Notes: generated by a model not told the origin, from the sequence alone. Positions 8,695 to 55,960 are shown, numbered from the stretch's first letter. The stretch: 64,000 nucleotides of DNA from Pseudomonadales bacterium (GCA_963663395.1 OY760226.1:3608325-3672324), one strand, 5' to 3'. A program made the numbers and translations.

Positions 8695-8869
8695 CCCTGG
8701 CGCGAACAAAAGCCGTTGACGAGAGGTTTCTCCTCACGTTTTCCGCGGAGGGTGGTCGATGCGGTCACGTTGGCCGGTATACTACGCGCCGCCATTCGGG
8801 AGGCGCGGGGTCTTCCCCGAATGTCCCGAAAACCATATTTCGACACTCATCAAACAAGAGGAAGAATCA

Positions 8870-18217: not shown

Positions 18218-18228
18218 GGCATGCGAGT

Positions 18229-18393
18229 CTAGCAGCCCGTGGCAAAAGTCCGGCGTAGCACCGAGAGCGCCGATGCGCCCGCCTGGCAAGGCGCGAGGAG
18301 CGAGAATATCGGGCATATTTGAGCGACGAGCAACGCAGTCAGGCGGGCGCAGCGGCGTTCGAATGCCGGCGGACTTTTGCCACGGGCTGCTAG
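18229..18393. repeat. 165-bp extended imperfect palindrome in a divergent promoter region (24-bp perfect outer arms, 11-bp perfect inner arms)
   Basis: The outer arm CTAGCAGCCCGTGGCAAAAGTCCG at 18229..18252 is the exact reverse complement of 18370..18393. The inner arms are GCGCCCGCCTG (18274..18284) and CAGGCGGGCGC (18340..18350). The centre AATATCGGGCATATT is also symmetric. Confidence 0.85.
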
Positions 18394-18488
18394 CATCGGT
18401 CGAGTCGACGGCTTCAGTGCCGCTTGATGATCGGGGCACATTGCCGTAGAAGCTTAAATCGCCATCCGACTGCAGGGGTGAACGGGGA

Positions 18489-35622: not shown

Positions 35623-36675
35623 CTATGCGGCCCGGTTTTCTTCGATCAGCCGATGCACGACTTCGATGGTCTCGAGCTTGGCATCGGCGCCCCGCCCCAT
35701 GACCTGCAGCTGGAGGATATCGATGCCGCAGTGCTCGTATTCCCGCAGGCGCTCCCGCACCATGTCCCGGGTGCCGATCACGCTGGCCTGCAGCGCCATG
35801 TCGTCAGGAACCCGGGCCACCGCCTGGTCGCGCTTCCCCGCCACCCAGAGCCGCTGCACGTCAGCGGCCACATCATCGTAGCCGATGCGCCGGAACGCCT
35901 GGTTGTAGAAATTGGTCTTCGGCGAGCCCATGCCGCCCAGTTGAAACGCCAATGCCGGCTTGCGTTTGGCAATCATCTCCTCGACGTTGTCGCCCACGCC
36001 GACAACCGCACCCACGGCAAGCTCGATGTCATCGAAGTTTCGTCCCGCTCGCACGGCCCCGCGCCGCATGGGCTCCAGGTACGATGCAGCCGTCGCGGGC
36101 GTGAACGAGGTGCCGATCCAGCCGTCCGCCATTTCCCCCGTGTATTCCAGCGCCCTCGGCCCCAGGGTCGCCAGAAAGATCGGAATGTTGGCATTCGGCC
36201 GGTGCGCCAGGCGCAGGGCCTTGCCTTCGCCGCCGGGTAGGGGCAACACATGGTGTTTGCCCTCGTAGCGCAGCTTCTCGCCCGCGAAGGCGAGCTTCAG
36301 GATGTCCACCAGTTCCTTCATGCGCGCCAGCGGATGTGCAAAAGGCACGCCGTGCAGGCCCTCGACAACCTGGGGCCCGCTCACCCCCAACCCAAGCATG
36401 AACCGGTTTTCGCTCATCGCCGCCAGAGACAGGGCTGCCATGGCGATGTTTCCCGGTGCCCGCGCGCTGACCTGGGCGATGCCCGAGGCCAGCCGCATCG
36501 TCGTGGTCCTGGCTGCCAGATAGGCCAGCGGCGTGAACGCGTCGGTACCCCAGGCCTCAGCCGACCAGGCCACGTCGACACCGAGTTTTTCACACTCGAT
36601 CGCATAGTCGACCGAGCGCGCGAAGCCGCCTTTCCTGTCCGCATCCACGCCGCCTATGGCAATAGCCGTTTTCAT
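35623..36675 (-). CDS. LLM class F420-dependent-type oxidoreductase
   Basis: 350 aa. Motifs: CEKLGVDVAWSAEAWGTDAFTPLAYLAARTTTMRLASGI, NRFMLGLGVSGPQVVEGLHGVPF and IPIFLATLGPRALEYTGEMADGW. Confidence 0.88.
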   Translation of the reverse strand: MKTAIAIGGVDADRKGGFARSVDYAIECEKLGVDVAWSAEAWGTDAFTPLAYLAARTTTMRLASGIAQVSARAPGNIAMAALSLAAMSENRFMLGLGVSGPQVVEGLHGVPFAHPLARMKELVDILKLAFAGEKLRYEGKHHVLPLPGGEGKALRLAHRPNANIPIFLATLGPRALEYTGEMADGWIGTSFTPATAASYLEPMRRGAVRAGRNFDDIELAVGAVVGVGDNVEEMIAKRKPALAFQLGGMGSPKTNFYNQAFRRIGYDDVAADVQRLWVAGKRDQAVARVPDDMALQASVIGTRDMVRERLREYEHCGIDILQLQVMGRGADAKLETIEVVHRLIEENRAA

Positions 36676-36826
36676 GTCACCCCCCGGTTGACTTCGTTCA
36701 GGCTGCGTCAGGCGACTCGCTCATCGGAAGTCTTTGTGTAAACTCGGCTGCGCCGGACCTGTTTAGATAATTTATACTTTTCGCTGGAGCATGGAAATAC
36801 CGGGAACAAATCGGACAGGACACCAG

Positions 36827-38140
36827 ATGGACTCCGACCCGCGCCGTCACTTCGTGCTGACCACCCTGTGTGTGGTCGCCATCGTCAACATGGTGGACCG
36901 GCAGATCATCACCATCGTCCTGGACCCCATCAAGGCCGAGTTCGGCGCATCCGATACCGCCATGGGGTTGCTCACCGGTATGATCTTCGCCGCCTTTTAC
37001 GCGACCGCCGCGTTTCCGCTCGCGCGCTGGGCGGACGGCGGCTCACGCAAGGTGGTGCTGGCGGCCTGTCTCGGATTCTGGAGCCTGATGACAACCCTTG
37101 GCGGCATCGCGCAGTCGTTCATTCAACTCGCCATCACGCGCGTTGGCGTCGCCATCGGAGAAGCCGGCGCCAGCCCCACCAGTCAGTCGATGCTCTCGGA
37201 CCTGTTTCCGTTGAGTTCCCGTGCAACGGTATTGGCCACGCTGTCGGCATTCAGCTCTTTCGGCATCGGGCTCGGCGTCCTGCTGGGTGGCTGGCTATCC
37301 GACACGTTCACCTGGCGCACGGCGTTTTTCATCGTCGGAGTACCGGGATTGCTGCTCGCTGCGTTTGTTTACCGGTTTCTGCCCGAGCCCCGGCGCGGCG
37401 CCGCCGATGGCCTGGTGGACGATCGGCAAACCCCCGGCATCGGGCAGGTATTCACGCATCTGAGAAAAATACCGACCTACCGCCACGTCGTCACGATCGC
37501 GGCCTTCGTTGCCCTGTGCGGCTACGGCCAGCTCATGTGGGGGCCCACGTTTTTTCGTCGCGTACACGACATGACCGGCACCGAGGCCGGAGTCGGATTC
37601 GGCCTCGCCACCATGGGGGCGTTCATGCTCGGCAATTTCACCGCCGGGCTCCTCTCCGACTGGGCCGGACAGAAGGACATACGCTGGTACATGCGTATCG
37701 CAGCCATCGGACCTGCCCTCGGGTTCCCCTGCGGCCTGCTGTTCGTCTTCGCGCCCGGCGCCATGGTCGCGCTCATCGCGTCGTTCCTGTTTCAGTTCTT
37801 CATCGTCTTTCACATCCCGCCCTGCTACGCCATCGCGCAGACCCTGTCGCCGTTGCGCATGCGGGCGATGGCCATGGTGATCATCGGCCTGTTCCAGAGC
37901 CTGATCGGCATTGGCCTGGCGCCCATCCTGATCGGTGCCGTCAATGATTTTCTACAACCGCAGTTCGGCCTGGAGGCGGTTCGGTATTCCCTGGGGCTGG
38001 TGATGGTTGGCGCCGTCATCGCCGCCTGCTTCGCGTTGCGCGCTTCGTTCACCATCAGCTCAGACCATGCGCAACGACAGCGTTCGGTAGCGCAGGAGCC
38101 TGGTGTAGTGTTCGAAGGCCAGCGCCGTGAGTTCAAATGA
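36827..38140 (+). CDS. MFS transporter (intact paralogue of the 13892..14471 remnant)
   Basis: Lies in ORF 36791..38140, start ATG 36827 (MDSDPRRHF) or ATG 36791. Motifs: VDRQIITIVLDPIKAEFGASDTAMGLLTGMIFAAFYATAAFPLARWADGGSRKVV. About 12 helices. Confidence 0.88.
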   Translation: MDSDPRRHFVLTTLCVVAIVNMVDRQIITIVLDPIKAEFGASDTAMGLLTGMIFAAFYATAAFPLARWADGGSRKVVLAACLGFWSLMTTLGGIAQSFIQLAITRVGVAIGEAGASPTSQSMLSDLFPLSSRATVLATLSAFSSFGIGLGVLLGGWLSDTFTWRTAFFIVGVPGLLLAAFVYRFLPEPRRGAADGLVDDRQTPGIGQVFTHLRKIPTYRHVVTIAAFVALCGYGQLMWGPTFFRRVHDMTGTEAGVGFGLATMGAFMLGNFTAGLLSDWAGQKDIRWYMRIAAIGPALGFPCGLLFVFAPGAMVALIASFLFQFFIVFHIPPCYAIAQTLSPLRMRAMAMVIIGLFQSLIGIGLAPILIGAVNDFLQPQFGLEAVRYSLGLVMVGAVIAACFALRASFTISSDHAQRQRSVAQEPGVVFEGQRREFK

Positions 38141-39644: not shown

Positions 39645-42074
39645 GTGAATTCCACCCCCCGCGCTGACAGCCGCCCGCTGCCGCTCGCCGGCATCCGGGT
39701 GCTGGACCTGTCCGGCGAGACCGCACCCGTCTGCGGTCAGATGCTCACCCTGTTCGGCGCCGACGTGGTGCTCGCCGAGCGCGGACCGAGTCGCGACCGC
39801 AGCGGACACTTTGCCTGGCTGGCGGCAAATGCCGGCAAGCGCAGCCTGGCACTGGACGAGGCCGGTTCGGCCGATGTGCTGGCCGAACTATGCCGCGTGG
39901 CCGACGTGGTGATCGACGGCGACCCCGGGAACCCGCTTGATTTCGACCCCCGCGTCGCGTCTCCGGGCCTCATCCACGTCACCGTCAGTCCCTTCGGCCT
40001 CGCCGGGCCGCATGCCGACTGGCTCGACAGCGAGCTCGTTGCCCAGGCGGCCGGCGGGCTGCTGTTTCTTTCCGGCGACGAGGACCATCCCCCGGCACAG
40101 ATCGGTGTCCCGCTGGCCACCGGCGTTGCAGGCGCCCAGGCCGCGTGCGCCGTGCTCATCGCCCTGGCCCAGCGGCGCCGGACCGGCGCCGGCGCGCGCA
40201 TCGACGTGTCGCGCCAGGAGAGCGTCGCCTGCCTGCTTTACGTCACCGAGTACATGGCTCACATCGACAAGCGCTCCGGCCGGCGGGGCGAAGTGCCGCT
40301 GACCTTCAGTGGCCGCAAGCTCACGCGCAAGGCATTCTGGCGCTGCGCTGACGGCTACCTCACCTGGACCCTCTGGACCGGCCCGGGCATGGGGCGCAAG
40401 AACGAGCCCATGTTCGAGTGGATGCGCGAGGAAGGCGTGCCCGAGGCCGCGCAATTGCTGGCCATGCCCTGGGAGAAGATGGGCACCGGCGATCTGACCG
40501 TGGAGCTGATCGAGCACGTCAACCGGGTGATGGGAGACTTTTTCGCACAGCGTACCAAGCGGCAGATCGACCGCCAGGCGCTTGAGCGACGCATATTGCT
40601 ATTCGTGGTGCAGAGCCTGGAAGAAGTGGCCAACAGCGAACAGCTCCTTGCCCGGGAGGCATTCGATTCGTTCGAACTGCCCGGTGGCCGAGCCGTCAGT
40701 ATCGTTTCCCGGCCGGCGCGCTCAACCGCCTACGCGGTGGAAGTTGCGGGCAAGGCGCCGGCGTGGGGCGCCGATACCGAAGCCGTGCGCACGCAGTGGC
40801 TTGCCCATGCGCCCACACCCGCCACGCCATCACCTGTCTCATCCCCGACGCCATCCGGCTCACTCCCGTTCACGGGCATTCGCGTGCTCGATTTCGGCTG
40901 GGCCATCGTCTCCCCGCTCACCACCCGCATGCTGTCGATCTTCGGCGCCGACGTGGTCAAGGTGGAGTTTCGCGGGCGGCCCGATACCCTGCGCATGACC
41001 GGCCCCTATCCCCAGGGCCACCCGTCGATGGACGGCAGTTCGGTATTCGTGAGCGTCAACGCCGGCAAGCGCAGCCTCGGCGTCGACATCAACCATCCCC
41101 AGGGCCGCGAACTGCTGTATCGCATGGCCGGTCAGGCGGATGTGGTGTGTGAGAACTTTACCCCGGGGACCGCCGTGCGGCTCGGCTATGGCTACGATAA
41201 ATTCCGCGCCATCCGCGAAGACATCATCATGCTGAGCCTGTCGATGCAGGGGCAGACCGGTCCGCGTGCCGATCAGCCCGGGCTTGGCAACCACCTGCAG
41301 GCCATGAGCGGCCTCGACTTCATGACCGGCTACCCCGATGGCCGTCCCCAGGGGCCCAACCAGGTACTGCCCGACTTCGTCGGGCCCTGGATGGCCATCG
41401 CCGCATTGACCTGCGCCCTGGAGCACCGGCACCGAACCGGGCAGGGGCAGGGCCAGTACCTGGACATCGCCCAGTTCGAGTCGATCATGCTCTACCTGCA
41501 GCCGGCGCTCATCGAATACGGGGTCACCGGGGCCTCGCCGGAGCGGCGCGGCAACAGTTCGCCCAGCCACGCACCACACGGCGTCTATCCGGGCAAGGGC
41601 GACGAGCGCTGGATCGCCATTGCCATCACCTGCGATGCCGAATGGCGGGCACTGCACGCACGCCTGCCACAGGCCCTGCGCGGGCGCTTCAATGCCGGCC
41701 TGTCCACCCCGAAACGGCTCGACCGCGCGACGGAACTGGATGCGGCACTCGCCGAGTGGACCGCCGCGCACGACCCGGGCGAGCTGGCGGGCAGCTTGCA
41801 GGCGCATGGCGTGCGCGCCCATCTGGTCTGCACGGGTCAGGACCTGCTCGACGACCCGCAACTCGCTTTCCGCGGGCACTACTTCACCCGCGAGCACGCC
41901 AAGCTCGGGGCGTCGCTGATGGTCGCCAACTCGTTTCGAATCAGCAGCGCCGAGCCCCTTTTCAAGCCCGGGCCGCGCTATGCGAGTGACTCCGTACAGG
42001 TGCTGGAGGACTGGCTGCAGGTCGAAGCGGACGAACTCGCCGACCTGCTGGCCACGGGGGCCATCGTCACGTAG
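39645..42074 (+). CDS. tandem-domain (fused) family III CoA-transferase, 809 aa
   Basis: From GTG 39645, with GAGGA upstream. Domain 1 starts LPLAGIRVLDLSGETAPVCGQMLTLFGADVV. Domain 2 starts LPFTGIRVLDFGWAIVSPLTTRMLSIFGADVVKVE and contains LQAMSGLDFMTGYPDGRPQGPNQVLPDFVGPWMAIAALTCAL. Confidence 0.85.
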   Translation: MNSTPRADSRPLPLAGIRVLDLSGETAPVCGQMLTLFGADVVLAERGPSRDRSGHFAWLAANAGKRSLALDEAGSADVLAELCRVADVVIDGDPGNPLDFDPRVASPGLIHVTVSPFGLAGPHADWLDSELVAQAAGGLLFLSGDEDHPPAQIGVPLATGVAGAQAACAVLIALAQRRRTGAGARIDVSRQESVACLLYVTEYMAHIDKRSGRRGEVPLTFSGRKLTRKAFWRCADGYLTWTLWTGPGMGRKNEPMFEWMREEGVPEAAQLLAMPWEKMGTGDLTVELIEHVNRVMGDFFAQRTKRQIDRQALERRILLFVVQSLEEVANSEQLLAREAFDSFELPGGRAVSIVSRPARSTAYAVEVAGKAPAWGADTEAVRTQWLAHAPTPATPSPVSSPTPSGSLPFTGIRVLDFGWAIVSPLTTRMLSIFGADVVKVEFRGRPDTLRMTGPYPQGHPSMDGSSVFVSVNAGKRSLGVDINHPQGRELLYRMAGQADVVCENFTPGTAVRLGYGYDKFRAIREDIIMLSLSMQGQTGPRADQPGLGNHLQAMSGLDFMTGYPDGRPQGPNQVLPDFVGPWMAIAALTCALEHRHRTGQGQGQYLDIAQFESIMLYLQPALIEYGVTGASPERRGNSSPSHAPHGVYPGKGDERWIAIAITCDAEWRALHARLPQALRGRFNAGLSTPKRLDRATELDAALAEWTAAHDPGELAGSLQAHGVRAHLVCTGQDLLDDPQLAFRGHYFTREHAKLGASLMVANSFRISSAEPLFKPGPRYASDSVQVLEDWLQVEADELADLLATGAIVT

Positions 42075-42267
42075 CTCGACAGGAACATTACCGCGCATGC
42101 GTGAGCGCACCAGCGTCTGCACCATGGCCTGGGCCGGCGGCAGGTGAGGGCACAGGTGTCCCGAGCGGTCCGAACAGCGGGCGCCCGGCGGCTGAATTGC
42201 GCCGGATTGTCGAACGCGACTAGTATCCGGCTACCCGGCGCTCGAACGGCCGCAAGCAGCGAACCCC

Positions 42268-44538
42268 ATGACTGACGAAATCGTCGTCAACACCGTCTGT
42301 GCCCACAACTGTGGCGGACGCTCGCCACTGGCCTGCACCGTACGCGACGGCCGCCTGGTGCGTGTGGCGCCCGCCGACCACCCGGATACCCGCTATCAGG
42401 GTTTGTGTGTGCGCTGCCTGACCTTGCCCCAATGGGTTTACGCAGAGGAGCGCATCGCTACGCCCCTGCGGCGTACGGGCGGGCGCGGCAACGGCGAATT
42501 CGAGCCGGTAAGCTGGGACGATGCGCTGGACGAGATCGCCGGGCGGTTCACGGCCCTGATCGATGCCCAAGGCGCCGAAAGCATCGCGTTTTCCCGCACC
42601 TCCGGGTCATCGCAACTGGCCAACTACAGCCGCCTGGCGGCGCTGATCGGCGGCGGCGGCAGCGCCAACTTCTTCGGCGGCGTGGACATGGCCGTGCACA
42701 TGGGCCTTAACAACGTGCTGGGTTTCAAGGGCATGTTCGGGCAGGCCGCCAACGAGTGGACAGACCGGCCCAACGCCAGAAACTACCTGGTGTGGGGCAA
42801 CAATCCCGCGGAAACGTCCATGACCTCCATGCGTTTCCTGCTCGATGCGCGCGCAGCCGGCACCGAGATCATCGTCATCGACTCGCGTTACTCGGCAACC
42901 GCCATGCACGCCACCTGGTGGATCGCACCGCGCCCGGGCACCGACCTGGCTCTGGCGCTGGGCATGTTGCACGTACTCATCGACGAACAACTGATCGATG
43001 AATCGTTCGCCATCGCACACACGGTCGGCCCGTTGCTGGTGCGCAAGGACAACGGCAGGTTTCTGCGCGAGTCCGATGTGTCTGCTACAGGATCGAGCAA
43101 TGGGTATCTCGTGCTCGACGCTGTCGGCACCCCCGGCAATTTCTCGGCGGTTTCCGCCCCCCGGCTGCGCGGGCACTTCGAAGTCGGCGGCCACGCGGTG
43201 AAAACGGCCTTCACCTTGCTCACCGAACTGGTGGCCGGCTATCCGCCCGACCGCGTCGCCGACATCACGGGGGTCGCGGCCGGCGAGATCCGCGAACTCG
43301 CCCGGAGTTACGCCAACGGCCCTTCCACCATCGGCTTCGGCTATGGCGTCGATCGCTACCTGCACGCCGAGGTGCTCACTCGCGCCGCCGCCACCATGGC
43401 GGTACTCACCGGCAACATCGGCAAGCCGGGCAGCGGAGTCGGCGTGCAAAGCCACGGCATCGGCAGCCGCATGGCCGCGCTCGGCCCCACGCCGCCGCTA
43501 CCGGACTGGGCCGGGACCGAGTCGATTCCCAATATCGAAGTCGGTTCCCGGGACCTGCCGGTGCGCGCCCTGTTCTGCCAGGGCGACTGGCTGAACCAGC
43601 GCATGGCGCACATGGAGCGCGCCCGCGAATACCTCCAGAGCCTGGAGTTCGTGGTGACCGTGGATCACTTCTGGCAGACCACCGCCGAGTGGTCCGACAT
43701 CGTGCTGCCCGCCTCCACCTTCCTGGAAGGCCGCGAACGGGTGCGCGACGTGGCGATGGCCGGCAACAGCGTGATGTTGCGCCAGCCGGTCATCCCGCCG
43801 GTGGGCGATTCGCGCCCCGACAGCGACATCGAAAAGGCGCTGGCCGAACGGCTGGGGCTGGGCGAATACTTCGAAGTCACCTGCGAAGACATGGTGCGCG
43901 CGCAGATCGATGGCTCCACCGACCCGGCCATGCAGGGCATCACCTTCGATGGCCTGCTCGCCCGGGGTGGCAGCGCCGCACTCAAGGTGCCACGCACGCC
44001 CAACGTGCAGTTCCCCGATCTCAGGTTTCCCACGGCCACCGGCCTTGCGGAGTTCTACGTGGAAGCGCTCGCGCCGCTCGGGGAAGCCCTGCCCGTATAC
44101 CGGGAAGACCACGAAGCCCTTCCCGGCCACCCCAACGCGGACGAGTACCCGTTGGTCCTAGTGCAAGCCCACGCCCGGCAACGGGCCCACTCGACCTTCT
44201 TCAACACCCGCTGGACCCTGGAACTCTGGCCGGAGCCGGTGCTGGAGATCAGTCCCGCCGATGCCGGCGCACGGGGACTGACCGATGGTGACCTGGCCGA
44301 AGCATTCAACGCACGCGGAAATGTCGTGGCGCGCGTGGCGGTCAGTGCCGACTACCCCCCCGGCATGGCCAACCTGTCGGAGGGGTGGAAGCAGAACCAG
44401 TACCTGGCGGGAAACGTGCAGGCACTGACCAACGGCGACATCAACCCTGCGCAGCAGCACCTGTGGGGCCACGCCAACATTCCCTTCTACGACACCCGGG
44501 TTGAAGTGCGGCCGTGGCGACAGGAGCCATCGCAATGA
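42268..44538 (+). CDS. molybdopterin (Mo/W-bisPGD) oxidoreductase catalytic subunit, DMSO-reductase superfamily, no Tat signal
   Basis: 756 aa. N-terminal Fe-S motif NTVCAHNCGGRSPLACTV...QGLCVRCL. Typical blocks: EFEPVSWDDALDEIA, NYLVWGNNPAETS, IVIDSRYSATAMHATWWIAPRPGTDLAL, FVVTVDHFWQTTAEWSDIVLPASTFLE, and C-terminal PLVLVQAHARQRAHSTF...ISPADAGARGLTDGDL. An in-frame stop at 42193 with no start codon after it excludes a longer N-terminus. Confidence 0.88.
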   Translation: MTDEIVVNTVCAHNCGGRSPLACTVRDGRLVRVAPADHPDTRYQGLCVRCLTLPQWVYAEERIATPLRRTGGRGNGEFEPVSWDDALDEIAGRFTALIDAQGAESIAFSRTSGSSQLANYSRLAALIGGGGSANFFGGVDMAVHMGLNNVLGFKGMFGQAANEWTDRPNARNYLVWGNNPAETSMTSMRFLLDARAAGTEIIVIDSRYSATAMHATWWIAPRPGTDLALALGMLHVLIDEQLIDESFAIAHTVGPLLVRKDNGRFLRESDVSATGSSNGYLVLDAVGTPGNFSAVSAPRLRGHFEVGGHAVKTAFTLLTELVAGYPPDRVADITGVAAGEIRELARSYANGPSTIGFGYGVDRYLHAEVLTRAAATMAVLTGNIGKPGSGVGVQSHGIGSRMAALGPTPPLPDWAGTESIPNIEVGSRDLPVRALFCQGDWLNQRMAHMERAREYLQSLEFVVTVDHFWQTTAEWSDIVLPASTFLEGRERVRDVAMAGNSVMLRQPVIPPVGDSRPDSDIEKALAERLGLGEYFEVTCEDMVRAQIDGSTDPAMQGITFDGLLARGGSAALKVPRTPNVQFPDLRFPTATGLAEFYVEALAPLGEALPVYREDHEALPGHPNADEYPLVLVQAHARQRAHSTFFNTRWTLELWPEPVLEISPADAGARGLTDGDLAEAFNARGNVVARVAVSADYPPGMANLSEGWKQNQYLAGNVQALTNGDINPAQQHLWGHANIPFYDTRVEVRPWRQEPSQ

Positions 44539-45212
44539 CCCGGTGGGCCATGACATACGATCTCGACCGCTGCATCGGCTGCTGGGCCTGCGCGGTGGCC
44601 TGCAAGGCGGAAAACAGCGTCGGCGAGGGCCTCTGGTGGCAGCAGGTCGACACCGTCGGCAGCACGCAACGCGACACCGCCGCCGGCACATTCCCCCAAC
44701 TTGACAAGCACTACCGGCCGCGCAACTGCTTCCATTGCGCCGAGCCGCCCTGCCTGCCCGCCTGCCCGGAGGGCGCCATCAGCCAACGCCCGGACGGCAT
44801 CGTGGAAATCGACTACGAAGCCTGCACCGGCTGCGGCGAATGCATTCCGGCCTGTCCCTACGATGCCATCAGCCTCAACCGGGCCGCTCCCGTCCTCCCG
44901 CACGGGCTGGAAAACGGGCACGGCGATGCCGCCGTGCCACCACGGCGAGCAGGCGTCGTGGAAAAATGCACGTTCTGCACACACCGCCTCGACCGCGGCG
45001 ACGACCCCGCCTGCGTTGCCGCCTGCCCGACCCAGGTCATCAGCTTCGGCGACCTCGACGATGCCGGCAGCACCGTCGCCGAGCATGCTGCCAGACACGA
45101 GGCGCACCGTCCCCGGGAGTCTTCCGGAGCCCAGCCTTCGGCCTGGTACCTCCCCTATTCCATCGGCTCGCGCCAGAGACGCAGTGGCGGCAGCCAGAAG
45201 CCTGCGTCGTAG
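44535..45212 (+). CDS. 4Fe-4S dicluster-domain electron-transfer subunit (DmsB/PsrB/NrfC-like), four Cys groups
   Basis: Lies in ORF 44514..45212. ATG 44535 overlaps the alpha stop (ATGA), and CAGGAG lies upstream. Cys groups: CIGCWACAVACKAEN, CFHCAEPPCLPACP, CTGCGECIPACP and CTFCTHRLDRGDDPACVAACP. Confidence 0.88.
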   Translation: MTRWAMTYDLDRCIGCWACAVACKAENSVGEGLWWQQVDTVGSTQRDTAAGTFPQLDKHYRPRNCFHCAEPPCLPACPEGAISQRPDGIVEIDYEACTGCGECIPACPYDAISLNRAAPVLPHGLENGHGDAAVPPRRAGVVEKCTFCTHRLDRGDDPACVAACPTQVISFGDLDDAGSTVAEHAARHEAHRPRESSGAQPSAWYLPYSIGSRQRRSGGSQKPAS

Positions 45213-45302: not shown

Positions 45303-46502
45303 ATGGTTGACCTGTGCCCGGACGACACCCCGGAACTAAAGGCGTGGCGCCACGAGGTTCGCGACTTCCTCGAAAAAGCGCTGCCCGAGCCCTGGACTTT
45401 CTGGTACGACTACGACGAGAACCCCGAGTCCTGGGACCGCTATCTCGCCTTCTGGCGCCAGGTAGGAAAGAAGCGGTGGACAGCCCTGACCTGGCCCGCC
45501 GAGTACTACGGCCTCGGCCGCCCGGCCATCGAGAAATGGATCCTGGAAGAAGAGTTCGTCAACCACGATGTGCCCACTTACCCGGTGATCGGCATGCACG
45601 TCGCCGGCTACCTGTTGCGCCTCGGCACCCACGGACAACGCCGGCGCCACCTGAAGGGCATCGCTGACTCCACCGTGCTCTGGGGCGAGGGGTACAGCGA
45701 GCCAGGTGCGGGGTCTGACCTGGCACGGCTGACCACCAGGGCGCACCGCGACGGCGACGACTGGGTGATCAACGGCCAGAAGACTCTCGGCACCGCTGCC
45801 CACTTCTGCCAGTGGATGTCGGTCCTGGCGCGCACCGACCCCGACGCGCCGCGGCATGCGGGCATTTCCTGTTTCCTGGTGCCGCTGGATGCCCCGGGCG
45901 TCGAGATGCTGCCCCTGGACAACATGGCGGACGGCCGCCAGAACATGACCTACTTCGATGACGTGCGCGTACCGGCGGACAGCCTGCTCGGCGATGAGAA
46001 CCAGGCATGGACGCAGATCTGGTTCGGCATGGGCGGCGAACGGCTCGACAACGCCGGCCCCAGCTTCGGCCCCCACGCCATGCGCATCGTGCCACTCTTG
46101 AAACGGGTCATCCGCTACTGCACCCAGACCACCCGCGGTGGCCGTCGTCTCGCCGACGACCCGGTGGTGCGCCAACAGCTCGGCGAACTCATGATGGGTG
46201 TGGAGGCCATCAAGCTGCAGGCCTATGAGATGTACGGCAACGCACGATCGGCCAGGCCGAACCGGTTCGGCGAGGCGTCGATGCACATGCACCAGGCCGT
46301 ATTCAAGGAATTCTGGCCGCACCTGGCGCAGGTGTGCATGGAAATCGTCGGCCCCATGGCGCAGATACAGGGCGGCCGATGGGCGCAGCTCAACGGCGAC
46401 ATCGAGCACTACTTCAGAGCCTCGTTCGGCAACCACGCCGGCGGCACATCGCAGCTCAAGCGCATGGTGCTGGCCACCCGCGGTCTCAACCTGCCGCGCT
46501 GA
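45303..46502 (+). CDS. acyl-CoA dehydrogenase (FadE-like, large subunit of pair)
   Basis: 399 aa. Motifs: LWGEGYSEPGAGSDLARLTT, DGDDWVINGQKTLGT, MGGERLD and HAGGTSQLKRMVLATRGLNLP. Confidence 0.9.
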   Translation: MVDLCPDDTPELKAWRHEVRDFLEKALPEPWTFWYDYDENPESWDRYLAFWRQVGKKRWTALTWPAEYYGLGRPAIEKWILEEEFVNHDVPTYPVIGMHVAGYLLRLGTHGQRRRHLKGIADSTVLWGEGYSEPGAGSDLARLTTRAHRDGDDWVINGQKTLGTAAHFCQWMSVLARTDPDAPRHAGISCFLVPLDAPGVEMLPLDNMADGRQNMTYFDDVRVPADSLLGDENQAWTQIWFGMGGERLDNAGPSFGPHAMRIVPLLKRVIRYCTQTTRGGRRLADDPVVRQQLGELMMGVEAIKLQAYEMYGNARSARPNRFGEASMHMHQAVFKEFWPHLAQVCMEIVGPMAQIQGGRWAQLNGDIEHYFRASFGNHAGGTSQLKRMVLATRGLNLPR

Positions 46503-46517
46503 AATCGGGAAAACGCC

Positions 46518-47654
46518 ATGGGCATCGATCTGCAACTCAGCGAAGAGCAGGAACTCATCGGCACTACGGCCAACGAGTTTTTCGGCAAATACTGCCCGCC
46601 GGAACTGGTGCGCGAATACGAAACGGGCGCATCGGACTTCCCCGGGGAACTCTGGTCACGGATGGCCGAACTGGGCTGGCTCGGCATGCCGTTCCCGGAA
46701 CGCCATGGCGGGCTGGGCCTGGCCATGCTGGACATGGTTCCGCTGTACGTCGAACTCGGCCGGCACCTGGTGCCCTGCCCGCTTCTCGATACCGCCGCCC
46801 TTGCCGGCGGTCTCATCAGTGCCCTCGGCAGCGAGGACCAGAAAAAAGAGCTGCTGGGGGGCATTGCCCGGGGCGAGTCCGTGATTACCCCCGCCATCAT
46901 GGAGCCCGACGGCGGTTACGGACCCGAGGCCGTGCAGCTCGAAGCCAGGCCCGACGGATCGCAATTCGTGCTAAGCGGCACCAAGGTGCTCGTCGCCTGT
47001 GCGCGCTCCGCGGACAAGCTGCTTTGCGCTGCCCGCACGGCAACCCATGCGAACGGTAACGGCATTACCCTGTTCCTGGTCGACCCCCGGGCAGCCGGCG
47101 CAACCATCGAGCGCATGCCCAACATTGCCGGCTACCCGCTGTATGCGGTTACGTTCGACCGGGTGTCCGTACCGCGGGAAGCCCTGGTCGGCGACCCTGA
47201 CGCGGCATGGCCGACCCTGTACGAGACGACGATGAAAGCCGCGGTATTGCAATCGGCGATGGTGGTCGGCGCTGGCGAGCGCGTACTGGCAATGACCACC
47301 GACTACGCCAGGGAGCGGGAGCAGTTTGGCCAGGCCATCGGCAGGTACCAGGCGGTGCAGTACCTCTGTACCGACATCGCCATACACTGCCACTGGACCC
47401 GCCTGCTCACCCTGCAGGCCGCCTGGCGCATCGACTCCGGCCGGCGCTTTTTCCGCGAGGCGGCGCTTGCCAAGGCTTCCGCCAGCCGCGGCGCCGCCGC
47501 CATGACCTTCGCCGCCCACGAGGTGCATGCCGGCATTGCCTTTGTCGTCGATTACGACCTGCAGCTATACACCCGCCGCGCCAAGCACTGGGAATACAAC
47601 CTGGGAGACCTGCGCTACCACCTCGACCGGGCCTGCGCGGAAAGCGGCCTGTAG
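46518..47654 (+). CDS. acyl-CoA dehydrogenase family protein, small/degenerate partner of a pair
   Basis: 378 aa. Motifs: LWSRMAELGWLGMPFPERHGGLGL, REQFGQAIGRYQAVQYL and VHAGIAFVVDYDLQLYTRRAK. It has IMEPDGGYG instead of SEPxAGSD, and no Glu at either base position (VLQSAMVVG, EYNLGD). Confidence 0.85.
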   Translation: MGIDLQLSEEQELIGTTANEFFGKYCPPELVREYETGASDFPGELWSRMAELGWLGMPFPERHGGLGLAMLDMVPLYVELGRHLVPCPLLDTAALAGGLISALGSEDQKKELLGGIARGESVITPAIMEPDGGYGPEAVQLEARPDGSQFVLSGTKVLVACARSADKLLCAARTATHANGNGITLFLVDPRAAGATIERMPNIAGYPLYAVTFDRVSVPREALVGDPDAAWPTLYETTMKAAVLQSAMVVGAGERVLAMTTDYAREREQFGQAIGRYQAVQYLCTDIAIHCHWTRLLTLQAAWRIDSGRRFFREAALAKASASRGAAAMTFAAHEVHAGIAFVVDYDLQLYTRRAKHWEYNLGDLRYHLDRACAESGL

Positions 47655-47665
47655 AAAAAGGCCGC
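47644..47665. terminator. weak stem-loop at a convergent gene junction (7-bp stem GCGGCCT/AGGCCGC, 8-nt loop containing the ACAD stop codon)
   Basis: Read directly from AAAGCGGCCTGTAGAAAAAGGCCGCGTT. It lies between the + strand ACAD end (47654) and the - strand P450 end (47743). There is no clear U-tract, so confidence is low. Confidence 0.25.
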
Positions 47666-47742
47666 GTTGCCTGAATTCAGAGTACGAACCCGCCTGCCGC
47701 TCAATCGCGTGCCGGTTTCTTTGGCCATCCTGCTACAGGCGA

Positions 47743-48966
47743 TCAGACATCCCACACCAGGGGCAGGCTGCCGAGGCAGACCAGGCCACCGTCGTAGCTG
47801 AGTTCTACGCCCTCCTGCAGGCGAAACGGCGGCACGCGCTCCAGCATCTGGGTTACCGCGATACGCAGTTCGCGGCGCGCCAGGTGCGACCCGGCACAGC
47901 GATGCACGCCGGCGCCGAAACCGAGGTGAGGGTTCGGCGCCCGGCAAAAATCGATCCGCTCCGGGTCGGGGATGGTCGCCGGGTCGTGGCTGGCGAAGTA
48001 GGTTGCGCACATGACAAAGTCGCCCTCGCGCATCTGCACGCCATGAAACTCGTGATCACGGGCCAGTACCCGGCTGGTGTTGATCCAACTGTGAAAACGC
48101 ACCAACTCCTCGATGGCGTCAGGGATCAACCCGGGGTCATCGCGCAGCCGCTGCTGCTCCGCGGGATATTCGGCGAGGTAGCGGAACACATGGCCGAGAC
48201 CGGCCGTGACCGTATCGAGGCCCGCCAGGAACAGCAGGAAGCCCATGTCCTCCAGCTTGTCCTGGGCGATGGGCTCGCCGTCAATGCGCGCCTTGACCAG
48301 CTGGCTCAGCAGGTCATCGCCGGGGTTCGCCCGCTTTTCTTCCGCCAGCTCGGCGATCATCGCTGCGACCTGCACCCCCGCGGCCTGTCGTTCTTCGGTA
48401 GTTTCGCCGTGAAACATGGTGCGCTCCCATTTCGAGAACTGTTCCCGCCGCTCGAGCGGGAACCCCACCAGTTCCATGAGCGCGATGATCGGAAACACGC
48501 GCGCGTACTCGACCATGAAGTCCACCGAACCGCGCCCGGCAAATCCGTCGATGATCTCGGCGGAGAGTTTTCTGAGCGGTTCTTCCAGGCCGTTGATCAT
48601 CTTCGGCGAGAACTCCGAGGCCAGGAGCTTGCGATACTTGGTGTGCTCCGGCGGGTCGAGTTCCAGGGGAACCAGCTTTCTAGGCCACGCGGTCGTCCCG
48701 CCGCCCACGACAATGCGGCTGGAAAACAATTCGCCGTTCTGGAAGACCTCGCGCATCAAGCCGGCCGTCTGCACCACCCAGGTGCCCCCGGCCCGGCTCG
48801 GCCGCCAGTCTCTGGGCAGATAGAAAAGGTCCGGCGCCCGTTCGCGCATTCGATCGAGAAGCGCGTAAGGCGACTTCAGTTCTTCCAGGGGATACTCCGG
48901 TTCGAAGTCGTAGACAAGCTCCGGCGGTACGTGGTCAGGAATTGTGTACGCTGCGATCTCAGCCAT
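47743..48966 (-). CDS. cytochrome P450
   Basis: Lies in ORF 47743..49062. Start ATG 48966 follows GGGAGG (MAEIAAYTIPDHVPPELVYDF). Motifs: I-helix LFLAGLDTVTAGL, EELVRF, and Cys loop HLGFGAGVHRCAGSHLARRE. Confidence 0.92.
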   Translation of the reverse strand: MAEIAAYTIPDHVPPELVYDFEPEYPLEELKSPYALLDRMRERAPDLFYLPRDWRPSRAGGTWVVQTAGLMREVFQNGELFSSRIVVGGGTTAWPRKLVPLELDPPEHTKYRKLLASEFSPKMINGLEEPLRKLSAEIIDGFAGRGSVDFMVEYARVFPIIALMELVGFPLERREQFSKWERTMFHGETTEERQAAGVQVAAMIAELAEEKRANPGDDLLSQLVKARIDGEPIAQDKLEDMGFLLFLAGLDTVTAGLGHVFRYLAEYPAEQQRLRDDPGLIPDAIEELVRFHSWINTSRVLARDHEFHGVQMREGDFVMCATYFASHDPATIPDPERIDFCRAPNPHLGFGAGVHRCAGSHLARRELRIAVTQMLERVPPFRLQEGVELSYDGGLVCLGSLPLVWDV

Positions 48967-49119
48967 GCATGCCTCCCGTATAATTTCTTCCCTTGGGATT
49001 AAGTTAACCCATTCACACTGGCTTGCCCACCATCCGGTCGGCGGCTCGAGTCCGCCAGCCAATGCATCCGCAACAACGATGGGCTATAAAGGCCGATTGC
49101 TGAACCAGGAGATTGGAGC

Positions 49120-49905
49120 ATGGACAAGATCGGCGATGTCGCCATCGAGATTCACGATCACGTGGCGCTGCTGGAAATCCAGCGGCCACCGAATAACTTC
49201 TTCGACGAAGATCTGATCAACTCCCTGGGAGACGCTTTCGATCTCATGGACGAAACCCCGGAGGTACGCGCCCTGGTGTTGGCCGCCCAGGGCAAGCACT
49301 TCTGCGCGGGCCGCAATTTCGCAAGCCCGGAAACGAAGCGCGCCAGTGAAAAGCGCCCCGAGGGGTGGGGCAACGACCTGTATTCCGCCGCGGTGCGGCT
49401 GTTCGAAGCCAAGAAGCCCGTGGTCGCAGCCGTACAGGGCGCTGCCGTCGGCGGCGGCTTCGGCCTCGCCGTCATGCCCGACTTTCGCGTCGTCAGCCCC
49501 CAGGCGCGCTTCACCGCCAATTTCGCCAAGCTCGGTTTTCATCCCGGCTTCGGGCTCACCCACACGCTGCCCAGGCTGATTGGCCAGCAGAAGGCAAACC
49601 TGCTGTTCCTCACCGGCCGGCGCATCAACGGCGAAACCGCCTATGAGTGGGGCTTGGCCGACATTCTTACCGACGCCGATTCACTGCGCGGCCGGGCCAT
49701 GGAATTCGCCGCCGAAATCGCCGAGAACGCGCCGCTGGCCCTGTTGTCCATCCGCAAAACCATGCGCGAAGGGCTCGCCCAGAAGGTGCGCGAGCAGACC
49801 GACAAGGAGTGGGAAGAACAGCGCTGGCTGCAGTCGACCAATGACCACCAGGAAGGCCTGAAGGCAGTAGCCGAGCGGCGCGTCGGCAACTTTACCGGCA
49901 CCTGA
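49120..49905 (+). CDS. enoyl-CoA hydratase/isomerase family protein
   Basis: 261 aa. Motifs: VALLEIQRPPNNFFDEDLINSL, HFCAGRNF and VAAVQGAAVGGGFGLAVMPDFRVVS. Confidence 0.9.
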   Translation: MDKIGDVAIEIHDHVALLEIQRPPNNFFDEDLINSLGDAFDLMDETPEVRALVLAAQGKHFCAGRNFASPETKRASEKRPEGWGNDLYSAAVRLFEAKKPVVAAVQGAAVGGGFGLAVMPDFRVVSPQARFTANFAKLGFHPGFGLTHTLPRLIGQQKANLLFLTGRRINGETAYEWGLADILTDADSLRGRAMEFAAEIAENAPLALLSIRKTMREGLAQKVREQTDKEWEEQRWLQSTNDHQEGLKAVAERRVGNFTGT

Positions 49906-50064: not shown

Positions 50065-51237
50065 TCACGCCATCACGAGCCCCGATTTCATCTGTTCAAC
50101 GGGCAGCGATCGCTCGATCATGCCGTAGGCCGACTCTTCGCCCCAGGTATACAGCGCCCCGCCCTGATGAAACGGCAAACCCCTGTCGCGATCGCGGGGC
50201 CAGTCGCCGAACATGGGAGCCCCCACCGCAACATACGTGGAATCGTGGGTTTTCCCCGTGATGCGGGTCTGACCTTCGTCGGTTTCAAGTACCACGTCCA
50301 CGGGGCCGCCATGCGCCACGAATTCCGTCATCCAGGGCGCTTCAACGAGCTTTGCGTATACCTTGCGCCGACCGTCGAAAACAAAGCCTTCACTGTATGC
50401 CGGCGTGCCGTCGGAGCGCGGCGGGAATGCCATAATGCCGAACGCCCTGCCGCTCGGAAACAATGCCGACTGCCAGCAGTGCCCCGGAAACTCGCCAATA
50501 TTACGCACGCCAAACCGGCGAATCTTCAGGCCGGTGCCGGTGAAGGCTTTCTCCGTTTCGCCGTCGACGGCAAACCGGCCGCTGCACCGGAACAACTGCT
50601 CGTGCCGGTGCCCGTCCACGGCGCCTACCGCATTTACGGTGGCATGGTCGCCAATGCGGACTGCCTGCTCGCCGGGTGTCCAGGGCGGCACTGCCATCAC
50701 CGCATCGACTTCGATGCGTAGGCGACGCACCGGTCCTCCCCTTTCGCCCATGACCTGACGCGCGATGGTGGTCTCGTAGGCATCTCCGTCAAACGTCATG
50801 CGCCAGTGCCGGAGCGGCTCGAGCACCTCGAACGTGAGCGGGCCCGCGTTCAGCGTCACCGCTCGCCCCTGCACCAGCCTCGCCGGCGCCGGCGCAAATC
50901 CCCCTGAACCGATCAATACCCGTCCATCCGGAAAAGCGACGTTCGCTTCCACGCCCCGGTTTTCCCAGGCCCCGGCCACCGCTTCGATACAGAACCGGGG
51001 AAAACCGAAGCGGCCCGCGTCGTCGGAAATCCACATGGAGACGCTCTCGCGCATGGCCGGATCGTCAGGCTTTTCCGGAAGTAGATAATCCAGTGCCGGA
51101 TCGTACCCGCCGCTCAATTCCAAGCCGGTCGGTTTCGCTGCGATTGCCCGGCCAGCCACCGCGGGCCACCCCCACAACAACGCCGCGCTACCCACTGCCC
51201 TGACACCGAAACCCAGGCTCACCCGCCGACTCAACAT
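50065..51237 (-). CDS. hypothetical protein with a twin-arginine-like signal peptide
   Basis: Lies in ORF 50065..51327. I prefer ATG 51237, preceded by GGGAG. The N-terminus MLSRRVSLGFGVRAVGSAALLWGWPAVAGRAIA|AKP looks like a Tat leader. The beta-rich body (GTGLKIRRFGVRNIGEFPGHCWQSALFPSG) loosely recalls AttH/CrtC-like lipocalin-fold proteins, but that is not verifiable here. Confidence 0.6.
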   Translation of the reverse strand: MLSRRVSLGFGVRAVGSAALLWGWPAVAGRAIAAKPTGLELSGGYDPALDYLLPEKPDDPAMRESVSMWISDDAGRFGFPRFCIEAVAGAWENRGVEANVAFPDGRVLIGSGGFAPAPARLVQGRAVTLNAGPLTFEVLEPLRHWRMTFDGDAYETTIARQVMGERGGPVRRLRIEVDAVMAVPPWTPGEQAVRIGDHATVNAVGAVDGHRHEQLFRCSGRFAVDGETEKAFTGTGLKIRRFGVRNIGEFPGHCWQSALFPSGRAFGIMAFPPRSDGTPAYSEGFVFDGRRKVYAKLVEAPWMTEFVAHGGPVDVVLETDEGQTRITGKTHDSTYVAVGAPMFGDWPRDRDRGLPFHQGGALYTWGEESAYGMIERSLPVEQMKSGLVMA

Positions 51238-51238
51238 G

Positions 51239-51376
51239 CTATCGATTCTCCCTCGCTCGACCAGCTCCCGGCGCCGCCACCTCGTCGCCGCACCAGTTGA
51301 CGATGTTGGCGGGCACGGGCGCAGCATCGAGCAGATTGCTGGCGCCGGTCGCCAGGATCTTTTCCCCAGTGATCAT
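51239..51376 (-). CDS. candidate small ORF (45 aa) between the sulfotransferase and the Tat-signal protein
   Basis: My own translation is MITGEKILATGASNLLDAAPVPANIVNWCGDEVAAPGAGRARENR. ATG 51376 lies 16 nt after the sulfotransferase stop, with GGAG 9 nt upstream. The stop TAG lies 1 nt before ATG 51237. By my count GC3 > GC1 > GC2 (about 76/65/54%). It is below the ORF-track length cutoff. I recognise no family. Confidence 0.35.
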   Translation of the reverse strand: MITGEKILATGASNLLDAAPVPANIVNWCGDEVAAPGAGRARENR

Positions 51377-52595: not shown

Positions 52596-52743
52596 ACGCC
52601 GCGACCACCACCAGGCTCGGCCTGACAATCGTGTGACTTGAGAGCTTGCGCATCATCCCTCCCCGATTCGAATTATCTTAATACGTTGACTAACTGGTAG
52701 CCATATCGCCTAATTGCCGGCACTGGTCGGCGGAGGCCGGGAG

Positions 52744-55873: not shown

Positions 55874-55960
55874 GTTCAGCCTCCCGCCGGCGGTCGAATT
55901 GTCCGCTCCAGAACCCGGAGCTATAGTGTAGCGCCAAAAGAGTTACCTCAAGTGACGACC

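Follow-up and report, generated by a model that had tools for sequence, protein, structure and literature searches.

Two overlapping genes in a 64,000-nucleotide stretch of the genome of a Pseudomonadales bacterium (GCA_963663395.1, OY760226.1:3608325-3672324; "the window" always denotes this whole stretch) encode a predicted soluble, cytoplasmic heterodimer of a molybdenum-bis(pyranopterin guanine dinucleotide) (Mo-bisPGD) enzyme, alpha, and an iron-sulfur (FeS) protein, beta. Judged by sequence comparison, the enzyme belongs to a clade that is small, uncharacterized and sharply separated from every curated family. The reading that we prefer, although only tentatively, is that it catalyzes an O2-independent, water-dependent oxidation of an organic catabolic intermediate in the cytoplasm. 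The two genes are as follows:

42268..44538, plus strand: alpha, catalytic subunit of 756 amino acids (aa), assigned to the Mo/W-bisPGD (DMSO-reductase/MopB) superfamily, without a twin-arginine translocation (Tat) leader
44535..45212, plus strand: beta, electron-transfer subunit of 225 aa, with 16 Cys residues in four complete motifs

An earlier note on this DNA, made by a model from the sequence, had proposed that the two genes are translationally coupled, and both the coordinates and the overlap were reproduced. In the tetranucleotide ATGA at 44535-44538 the stop codon of alpha overlaps the start codon of beta, and an AGGAG motif lies 9-13 nt 5' of the beta start. The N-termini of homologues back ATG 44535, rather than GTG 44514, as the start of beta. 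The alpha protein begins with MTDEIVVNTVCAHNC, and ATG 42268 is its earliest possible start, as had also been claimed: an in-frame TGA is located at 42193-42195, and no ATG, GTG or TTG is present in between. A longer alpha with a hidden Tat leader was excluded by this stop codon, by the absence of a start codon, and by the homologues, which begin at the equivalent residue. The GC content at third codon positions of alpha and beta is 0.82-0.84. In Pfam, alpha matched PF04879 (Molybdop_Fe4S4) with 24 bits, barely over the cut-off, PF00384 (Molybdopterin) with 167 bits, and PF01568 (Molydop_binding) with 67 bits; PF00384 followed by a C-terminal PF01568 is the domain set of the superfamily. The beta protein matched Fer4_11 and related models.

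Homologues were collected to define the group to which alpha belongs. The protein search yielded 47 clusters with 49-93% identity to alpha, followed by a sharp drop to at most 38%, and the names on all 47 clusters were generic only. The window protein and the homologues labeled P0001-P0043 are here called the core clade, the members of which are all at least 52% identical. In a library of 1.84 billion proteins clustered at 50% identity, the core clade was represented by a single protein (1255 bits), and the next protein scored 763 bits. No record was found in an exact-sequence look-up of the window alpha, a search of a plasmid collection yielded only relatives with at most 34% identity, and literature searches for a characterized core-clade member found none. 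A survey of 47,000 superfamily sequences lists only known families (PMC10100899). The window pair carries the complete signature of the clade, i.e. no Tat leader, Ser or Ala at position 19 together with Cys at position 50, the motif GG(V/I)D(M/L)AVHMG, and the tail QRRSGG in beta.

For phylogenetic placement a neighbor-joining tree was built from 235 columns of the N-terminal half; it includes partial PDB fragments, and its backbone is short and poorly resolved. The core clade was monophyletic in 50 of 50 bootstrap replicates, and its sister was a Tat-bearing clade that includes Coriobacteriia proteins. An identification of this sister clade with the catechol dehydroxylases was unsupported, because those enzymes are reported to be related to acetylene hydratase (PMC7028382), whereas the sister group is nearer to PcrA and ethylbenzene dehydrogenase (EBDH). 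A separate Tat-less clade was observed at about 37% identity (P0055, P0058, P0060-P0068; motif CDPNCHA...GVDYGVP). It is adjoined in the tree by a Tat-less homologue with 34% identity on plasmid pLA3 of N. pentaromativorans (L017:8953-13166), where genes for a small 4Fe-4S protein and an FAD-dependent oxidoreductase come after alpha. These proteins show that presumably soluble forms arose repeatedly in that part of the superfamily.

The absence of a twin-arginine motif that had been noted for the window alpha extends to the clade, as none was found in about 40 full-length core-clade members. Likewise, no NrfD/DmsC anchor, heme-b subunit or TorD/NarJ chaperone domain was detected among the about 55 genes of the window in a Pfam scan of the 64 kb, in agreement with the earlier note, and no anchor or chaperone genes were present in the other core-clade loci inspected. 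In contrast, the examined loci of the basal and sister lineages encode classical complexes with Tat leader, NrfD and chaperone. The basal homologues P0044 and P0045 (Dehalococcoidia, 49% identity) have a Tat leader (TRRTVLKGAAV...), the P0044 locus contains beta, NrfD and a NarJ-like chaperone, and the twin-arginine motif is present throughout the sister clade. The locus of the sister-clade protein P0052 encodes an alpha with Tat leader, beta, NrfD, a NarJ-like protein and TatA/B/C. The Haloferax DmsA, which is 33% identical to alpha, is part of dmsEABCD with NrfD and TorD. The retention of Tat leader, NrfD and NarJ-like chaperone in the basal member and the sister clade marks the core clade as secondarily cytoplasmic, having lost export signal, membrane anchor and chaperone.

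Assignment of alpha to a known family was attempted with curated models, with PDB sequences and with a structure prediction. None of the curated NCBIfam equivalog or subfamily models scored over its cut-off, and all were far below it. The best score was obtained with TIGR03479 (type II alpha; 311 bits versus a cut-off of 984.75), followed by TIGR02166 (DmsA/YnfE; 253 versus 778), TIGR01591 (formate dehydrogenase alpha; 233 versus 666), NF012032 (PhsA; 203 versus 694) and the EbdA model (143 versus 2000). PDB was searched with the single sequence and with a profile of 22 family members, and in both cases PcrA was the best match (312 bits with the profile). The next profile scores were an FdhF (246 bits), EBDH (237), PsrA (224) and DMSO reductase (about 217), while acetylene hydratase (204), NarG (163) and pyrogallol transhydroxylase (126) were lower.

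The AlphaFold2 model of alpha (mean pLDDT 86.8, pTM 0.88) was compared by Foldseek, and at least 50 superfamily members in PDB matched its fold with a probability of 1.00. The best matches by query-normalized TM-score (TMq) were PcrA (0.83-0.85), EBDH (0.84) and Nxr (0.83); weaker matches at 0.73-0.77 were acetylene hydratase (0.73), PsrA (0.74), TorA, DMSO reductase and pyrogallol transhydroxylase (0.76). The model thus places the fold of alpha in the Asp-ligated, "type II" branch of the DMSO-reductase superfamily, together with PcrA, EBDH and NarG-like enzymes. Other hallmarks of the type II enzymes are absent. The FeS cluster FS0 is not bound by the pattern His-x3-Cys-x3-Cys-xn-Cys, beta is not a NarH-type subunit of more than 320 aa with one degraded Cys group ([3Fe-4S]), and neither a heme-b gamma subunit/NarI nor a NarJ/EbdD chaperone was found in the window or in the core-clade loci inspected. 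The pair also differs from the DmsA/YnfE enzymes in score, in the Tat leader and in the partners DmsC and DmsD. It differs from PsrA/PhsA in score, in the NrfD anchor and in the Cys ligand, as Asp/Val occupy the ligand or adjacent position, and from the formate dehydrogenases in score and in V139-D140, where FdhF has Cys-His (Sec or Cys followed by His). The view that the pair falls outside the characterized respiratory families was thus upheld by the model searches, in which the superfamily domains were matched and the family scores were under the cut-offs, and by the phylogeny, in which the clade was monophyletic and distinct and was not placed inside a well-characterized respiratory clade.

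The kinship of alpha bears on a second possibility, i.e. that the pair is a cytoplasmic reductase, in which a low-potential soluble donor would deliver electrons through beta to Mo for a dehydroxylation, for the reduction of an S-oxide, N-oxide or epoxide, or possibly of an oxyanion. Reductases make up the nearest structure (PcrA), the haloarchaeal Dms proteins (33% identity) and most of the relatives, and the operons of the basal member and of the sister clade are of the respiratory-reductase type. A soluble complex that lacks a quinone-binding anchor would also couple more readily to cytoplasmic reductants, and an FAD-dependent oxidoreductase gene is adjacent in the related Tat-less clade. 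A precedent comes from the catechol dehydroxylases, which lack a Tat leader, are probably soluble, pair with a small 4Fe-4S protein and have a major facilitator superfamily (MFS) gene next to them (PMC7028382), but they belong to the acetylene-hydratase-related branch, which is clearly more distant from alpha than PcrA and EBDH. Moreover, no conserved donor module (flavoprotein, ferredoxin reductase) was found beside the core-clade pair in the loci inspected, and the genetic setting is one of oxidative catabolism. We regard such a reductase as possible, and as nearly as plausible as the O2-independent oxidation.

The beta subunit was analyzed in the same way. Its 16 Cys residues are arranged in four complete groups (C13/16/19/23, C65/68/73/77, C97/100/103/107, C145/148/160/164), and four [4Fe-4S] clusters are therefore expected. 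In PDB, the small-type subunits PsrB (2vpw_B; E 1e-43, 152 bits) and ArrB (E 2e-40) were matched, and the scores for this type were 152 and 142 bits. NarH-type subunits scored lower (PcrB 99 bits, EbdB 92 bits), and TIGR03478 reached 107 bits versus a cut-off of 481. By these scores beta is of the small PsrB/NrfC/ArrB/DmsB type and not of the NarH type. Therefore, on the basis of the fold order of alpha and the bit scores of beta, the pair appears to combine a type-II-like alpha with a small four-cluster beta. The C-terminus of beta (45150-45212 in the window) has the form ...W(Y/F)xP...QRRSGG, which is shared by all core-clade betas and by the basal Tat-bearing member and is missing from the sister-clade beta and from E. 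coli DmsB. This tail could dock onto alpha or onto a partner.

All 16 Cys residues are conserved in the subclade of the window. A divergent subclade, consisting of a protein from a Myxococcota metagenome-assembled genome (MAG), P0034 and P0043 (52-58% identity), has shortened "mini-betas" of 147-173 aa:

L016:12307-12750: mini-beta
L021:12298-12789: mini-beta
L055:10303-10824: mini-beta

In the mini-betas Cys groups II and III are missing, as is one Cys (the second) of group IV, and they would hold only one or two clusters.

The N-terminal cluster FS0 of alpha seems to have been rewired. The spacing C-x3-C-x7-C with Ser in place of the third Cys, which had been pointed out as an oddity, was confirmed: the pattern is Cys11-x3-Cys15-x3-Ser19 ... 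Cys47-x2-Cys50. In a MAFFT alignment the published FS0 ligands of E. coli NarG (H49, C53, C57 and C92) aligned with C11, C15, S19 and C47 of the window protein, so that Ser19 maps onto Cys57 of NarG. Position 19 is Ser or Ala in all core members and Cys in all of the about 50 other full-length homologues, including the Tat-bearing basal members, while position 50 is Cys in all core members and Gly in all other homologues. This perfect covariation suggests that Cys50 takes over from Cys19 as a ligand of FS0. Another possibility is that FS0 is of the [3Fe-4S] type. Replacement of Cys19 by Cys23 is less likely, because Cys23 also occurs in the sister clade, where Cys19 persists; the sister clade also retains His-x3-Cys-x3-Cys. 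We therefore propose C11, C15, C47 and C50 as the probable ligand set. The conserved Arg49, located after the fourth Cys, occupies the K/R position through which FS0 and the pterin are usually connected.

Asp140 is invariant among the 100 homologues examined and belongs to the motif GG(V/I)D(M/L)AVHMG; the neighboring His144 is clade-specific. An Asp at the position of the Mo ligand had been suggested from an alignment by eye. This assignment found support in the multiple alignment by MAFFT, which likewise recovers the known FS0 ligands of NarG and in which the D140 column contains D222 of NarG, D170 of PcrA, the Asp of Haloferax DmsA and the Ser of E. coli DmsA. Pairwise HMMER alignments, in contrast, placed the ligand 1-2 residues off: D170 of PcrA fell on A142, D223 of EBDH in an insertion after A142, C173 of PsrA on D140, and the Cys of FdhF on V139, and a placement at V143 was obtained as well. 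As the pairwise gap placement varies with the target and the multiple alignment with intermediate sequences is more consistent, Asp140 is the probable Mo ligand.

These features of the two subunits also bear on a redox-neutral function. In this case alpha would be a Mo-dependent hydratase, hydroxyl-transferase or isomerase, and the FeS chain would be structural or vestigial. The architecture matches that of pyrogallol transhydroxylase, a cytoplasmic alpha-beta enzyme without Tat leader, anchor or obvious redox partner, and no conserved acceptor or donor gene was found. A stepwise loss would also fit, of anchor, chaperone and Tat leader first and then, in one subclade, of two of the four Cys groups of beta. 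However, the strict conservation of the 16 Cys residues, the FS0 ligands and Arg49 in the subclade of the window indicates selection on the electron path. In addition, alpha is less similar to acetylene hydratase and to the transhydroxylase than to PcrA and EBDH, by bit score as well as by fold, and the ligand is probably Asp and not Cys or Ser. We consider a redox-neutral enzyme quite unlikely.

The genes surrounding alpha-beta are the following:

36791-38140, plus strand: MFS transporter; overlaps the cytochrome P450 (P450) gene, and the MFS-P450 pair is syntenic in loci L001, L010 and L022
38127-39407, plus strand: P450, CYP101/P450cam-like (P450cam family, E 4e-72)
39645..42074, plus strand: fused double family-III CoA-transferase (CoA_transf_3) of 809 aa, 193 bp 5' of alpha
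45303..46502, plus strand: acyl-CoA dehydrogenase (ACAD), large partner of a heteromeric pair, 90 bp 3' of beta; pimC-like by NCBIfam
46518..47654, plus strand: ACAD, second partner, 15 bp after the first; pimD-like and IpdE2-like
47743..49062, minus strand: second P450, convergent with the operon and conserved in relatives
49120..49905, plus strand: enoyl-CoA hydratase (ECH); the best NCBIfam model is EchA19, under its cut-off

The order in the window is thus an AMP-ligase, a luciferase-like monooxygenase (LLM), MFS-P450, the double CoA-transferase, alpha-beta and the ACAD pair, followed by the convergent P450 and the ECH. The earlier note had named a CoA-transferase, a P450, an MFS transporter and an ACAD pair as neighbors; all of these were confirmed, and a 491-aa open reading frame (ORF) on the plus strand was replaced by the second P450. 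This ORF (47527-49002) is an antisense artifact without a Pfam match, and the real gene at this position is the P450 on the minus strand. The intergenic distances from the CoA-transferase through the ACAD pair are 193, -4, 90 and 15 bp, and no terminator-like site was found from the CoA-transferase gene through to the second ACAD gene. The large ACAD partner is most similar in PDB to ChsE4-ChsE5 (4x28) and Tcur3483, which are steroid-type alpha2beta2 ACADs, and it is syntenic in L001-L003, L009-L011 and L022. Alpha-beta is hence in an apparent operon with an ACAD pair of the alpha2beta2 type. The C-terminal half of the 809-aa CoA-transferase resembles benzylsuccinate CoA-transferase (9fn0, E 3e-52), and a second enzyme of this kind is encoded in the window:

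15905-18550, minus strand: fused double family-III CoA-transferase of 881 aa, adjoining an MmgE/PrpD-family gene (14538-15914, minus strand)

The tandem-fused enzymes resemble the two-subunit benzylsuccinate CoA-transferase. Altogether, ACADs occur in the 64 kb at least four times, as pairs or singles, along with two fused double CoA-transferases, five LLMs, four ECHs, five short-chain dehydrogenases/reductases (SDRs) and two acyl-CoA ligases, as well as MaoC-like, PhyH, TauD, sulfotransferase-like, MmgE/PrpD, aldehyde dehydrogenase (ALDH) and glutathione S-transferase genes. By its annotated gene content, the stretch as a whole is an acyl-CoA catabolic island.

Several further features of this island were observed. 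It encodes a PhyH-family (phytanoyl-CoA dioxygenase-like) protein (55859-56881, plus strand), an LLM oxidoreductase (35623-36675, minus strand; 324 bits with the Rv3520c-type model versus a cut-off of 335) and a SnoaL-like protein (8759-9289, plus strand). PhyH, Rv3520c-type LLM and SnoaL-like proteins are typical of catabolic clusters for branched lipids, steroids and terpenoids. A Sulfotransfer_3 protein (51393-52628, minus strand), a TauD-family dioxygenase (61572-62396, plus strand) and a SulP/STAS permease (6526-8694, plus strand) are also present, and a sulfatase is encoded at the Myxococcota locus (L016:6001-7386); these sulfate-ester genes may be a hint that the substrates are sulfated lipids or sterols. 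Lastly, a family of about 400-aa proteins without a Pfam or PDB match recurs near alpha-beta in four locus groups, with the following copies:

50065-51327 in the window, minus strand: member of the recurrent family of about 400 aa
L023:5604-6680, minus strand: member of the same family, directly 5' of the pair
L053:5988-7199, plus strand: member of the same family

A role as a new membrane anchor was excluded for this family because no hydrophobic segment is present (maximum KD19 1.19). The copies in the window and in L053 have Tat-like leaders (SRRVSLG, DRRKAMK), and the family is probably periplasmic.

Conservation of the gene neighborhood was analyzed in relatives. The order LLM-MFS-P450-CoA-transferase-alpha-beta-ACAD-ACAD-P450-ECH is conserved in relatives with 79-93% identity. 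In Rhizorhabdus dicambivorans the locus comprises a TonB receptor, P450, ECH, Fer2, thiolase, FadB, alpha, beta and LLM, and the Myxococcota MAG has SDR, MaoC-like, CoA-transferase, ECH, ALDH, ligase and sulfatase genes. In a gammaproteobacterium with 68% identity ECH and an ACAD pair flank alpha-beta, the P0010 locus contains ACAD, ECH, four SDRs and the glyoxylate shunt, and L023 and L036 contain P450, LLM and ACAD fragments. Over 15 dereplicated locus groups, in which a crude gene caller was used so that the counts are lower bounds, SDRs were found in at least 10, P450s in at least 5, and ACAD, ECH and CoA-transferase in at least 4 each. In some cases the gene picker chose an antisense ORF in place of beta (cluster c17), and the presence of beta was therefore judged by tblastn together with the called genes. 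The earlier note had proposed to look for a co-occurrence with ACAD, CoA-transferase and P450; neighbors of the lipid/CoA type were found in the relatives at 79-93% identity, Rhizorhabdus, the Myxococcota MAG, other Gammaproteobacteria and P0010; elsewhere, aromatic, amidase/ABC transporter, esterase and housekeeping contexts were found. The link of the clade to lipid/CoA catabolism, as far as gene neighborhoods indicate, is thus real but partial and applies to about half of the relatives.

The hosts of the core clade are diverse. The closest relatives (87-93% identity) are from MAGs of uncultured Pseudomonadales and Gammaproteobacteria, one of them from a sponge. Further hosts are Mesorhizobium, Rhizorhabdus, Caulobacteraceae, Ilumatobacteraceae, Thermomicrobiales, Myxococcota and Dehalococcoidia, so that Gamma- and Alphaproteobacteria, Actinobacteriota, Myxococcota and Chloroflexota are represented. 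The wide taxonomic spread of one 50% cluster implies horizontal transfer of the module. In a relative with 93% identity a DDE transposase gene is located between the CoA-transferase and alpha (L022:8256-9761); because of this insertion upstream of alpha, alpha-beta-ACAD might possess a separate promoter, or else be disrupted in this relative. Distribution and context could accordingly also be explained by a mobile accessory module that acts on a small common metabolite, e.g. a sulfur or nitrogen oxo-compound, with incidental lipid neighbors. The occurrence of a single cluster in five phyla with differing neighbors suggests transfer of the alpha-beta unit alone, the transposase lies directly 5' of alpha, and sulfur-ester-related genes (sulfotransferase-like, TauD, SulP, sulfatase) are nearby in two contexts. 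Such a module is nevertheless unlikely, since the operon-like packing with the ACAD pair is kept at 79-93% identity, CoA and lipid genes recur in unrelated hosts, and no inorganic-ion transporter or regulator is consistently adjacent.

The O2-independent oxidation is favored because of the type-II-like fold, the probable Asp ligand, the operon with the ACAD pair, the SDR and ALDH neighbors, and the conserved electron path. SDR is the most frequent neighbor, which fits a hydroxylase followed by an alcohol dehydrogenase, and the steroid-type ACAD partner and the terpenoid P450cam-type P450 were counted in favor of the island connection. As substrate, a catabolic intermediate of the island would be expected, most likely a bulky carboxylate of the alicyclic or isoprenoid kind, either as such or as the CoA thioester. 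At the Mo, a C-H hydroxylation or a dehydrogenation of an alcohol or another group would take place, as in EBDH or steroid C25 dehydrogenase. Two electrons would pass from Mo via the pterin and Arg49 to FS0 (C11/C15/C47/C50) and on to the four beta clusters, and the final acceptor would be soluble or peripheral, with ferredoxin, an electron-transfer flavoprotein or quinone as candidates. The product would enter the pathway of the ACAD pair, the ECH and the SDRs.

Several observations weigh against this reading. The differing contexts in a very conserved clade argue against a single lipid-CoA substrate: in one member two TetR genes, catABC, a xanthine-dehydrogenase-type enzyme and HpaB adjoin the pair; in another it is a peptide-type ABC transporter, an amidase and Rieske oxygenases; in Mesorhizobium, GlcD/F-like genes, an esterase and an SDR; and in other members a wax-ester synthase and an esterase, or actinobacterial housekeeping genes. 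In the tree NarG, PcrA and EBDH form a separate group in which the core clade is not nested, and the short mini-beta fits a short or vestigial electron path better. To our knowledge, the characterized hydroxylases of the type II branch (EBDH, steroid C25 dehydrogenase, p-cymene dehydrogenase) are all periplasmic, contain a heme-b gamma subunit and depend on high-potential acceptors. An acceptor is not evident for the window pair. Finally, the hosts are evidently aerobes with many adjacent oxygenases, which makes a need for an O2-independent hydroxylase questionable.

A more specific scenario is doubtful. The pair would then be the first cytoplasmic, anchor-less relative of EBDH and steroid C25 dehydrogenase, carrying out an O2-independent hydroxylation with oxygen from water, or else a hydration or hydroxyl shift without net redox change, of a CoA-activated terpenoid- or steroid-like acid in aerobes and feeding an alpha2beta2 ACAD, and the rewired FS0 would tune the potential for a soluble acceptor. 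If true, the water-dependent hydroxylation or rearrangement of a lipid-CoA would be an unexpected O2-independent step in "aerobic" terpenoid and steroid degradation, which could matter in intermittently anoxic habitats, e.g. sponges and soils, and the clade would serve as a soluble and tractable model of such enzymes. The clade merits study because it is distinct from the curated families, is spread over five phyla of mostly aerobic heterotrophs, and apparently represents a transition from exported to cytoplasmic enzymes. In several hosts it resides in operons for the catabolism of bulky acyl-CoAs, and cultured hosts exist, e.g. Rhizorhabdus dicambivorans and Mesorhizobium muleiense. The coupled exchanges of Cys19 to Ser/Ala and of Gly50 to Cys are a natural experiment in the re-ligation of FS0.

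Of the known systems, PcrAB of Azospira suillum (4ydd, 5ch7, 5e7o) is closest to alpha in sequence and fold. PcrA has Asp170 in the D140 column and an N-terminal FS0 followed by a K/R residue, and it has an FeS partner subunit. However, PcrA and alpha are only 23-24% identical, and PcrA is Tat-exported, periplasmic and acts on an oxyanion. PcrB is of the NarH type with 333 aa, to which the window beta scores 99 bits versus 152 bits to PsrB. The gate and substrate residues F164, Y165 and W461 of PcrA have no identical counterpart in alpha, either in the pairwise or in the profile alignments, and the third FS0 position and position 50, which are Ser19 and Cys50 in the window protein, are occupied in PcrA by Cys and Gly, respectively.

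PsrABC, DmsABC and the haloarchaeal DmsEABCD share the small four-cluster type of beta with the window pair, and the Haloferax DmsA has, in addition to its 33% identity to alpha, an Asp in the D140 column. Unlike the window pair, these systems are exported by a Tat leader, anchored by NrfD/DmsC and assisted by a TorD-type chaperone, and the ligand is Cys in PsrA and Ser in E. coli DmsA versus a probable Asp in the window protein.

EbdABC and the Sterolibacterium steroid C25/C26 dehydrogenases serve in catabolism, where they use water to hydroxylate hydrocarbons or sterol side chains, and alcohol dehydrogenase genes adjoin theirs (see also PMC7411048 and PMC11061730). EBDH resembles alpha in its type-II-like fold (TMq 0.84, 237 bits with the profile). 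In contrast to the window pair, EBDH and the steroid dehydrogenases, the latter compared by description, are periplasmic alpha-beta-gamma enzymes with a heme-b subunit, a dedicated chaperone and an alpha of about 976 aa. EBDH is 19% identical to alpha, and its ligand Asp223 lies in a one-residue insertion and its His192 also in an insertion.

The Gordonibacter-type catechol dehydroxylases (Dodh, Cldh) are reported to be Tat-less, smaller and probably soluble; their partner is a small 4Fe-4S protein, and MFS transporter genes lie beside theirs (PMC7028382). They were compared with the window pair by description only, and they differ in that they belong to the more distant acetylene-hydratase-related branch, are reductive, and occur in anaerobic Coriobacteriia of the gut. 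Pyrogallol-phloroglucinol transhydroxylase (AthL/BthL; 4v4c) is, like the window pair, a soluble cytoplasmic alpha-beta enzyme without Tat leader, anchor or external redox partner, and its substrate is organic. Its similarity to alpha is low (126 bits, TMq 0.76, 17% identity), its ligand is Ser, its beta has three clusters and an extra domain, and the enzyme comes from a strict anaerobe.

PadBCD of Thauera and Aromatoleum is a Mo-FeS enzyme of the superfamily that oxidizes a CoA thioester on the cytoplasmic side and is membrane-bound via PadD. Compared by description only, it would be the closest functional analogy for an action on acyl-CoA. Few Mo-bisPGD enzymes act on organic compounds without O2, namely EBDH, the steroid C25/C26 dehydrogenases, acetylene hydratase, pyrogallol transhydroxylase and the catechol dehydroxylases, and each one found so far has revealed new chemistry.

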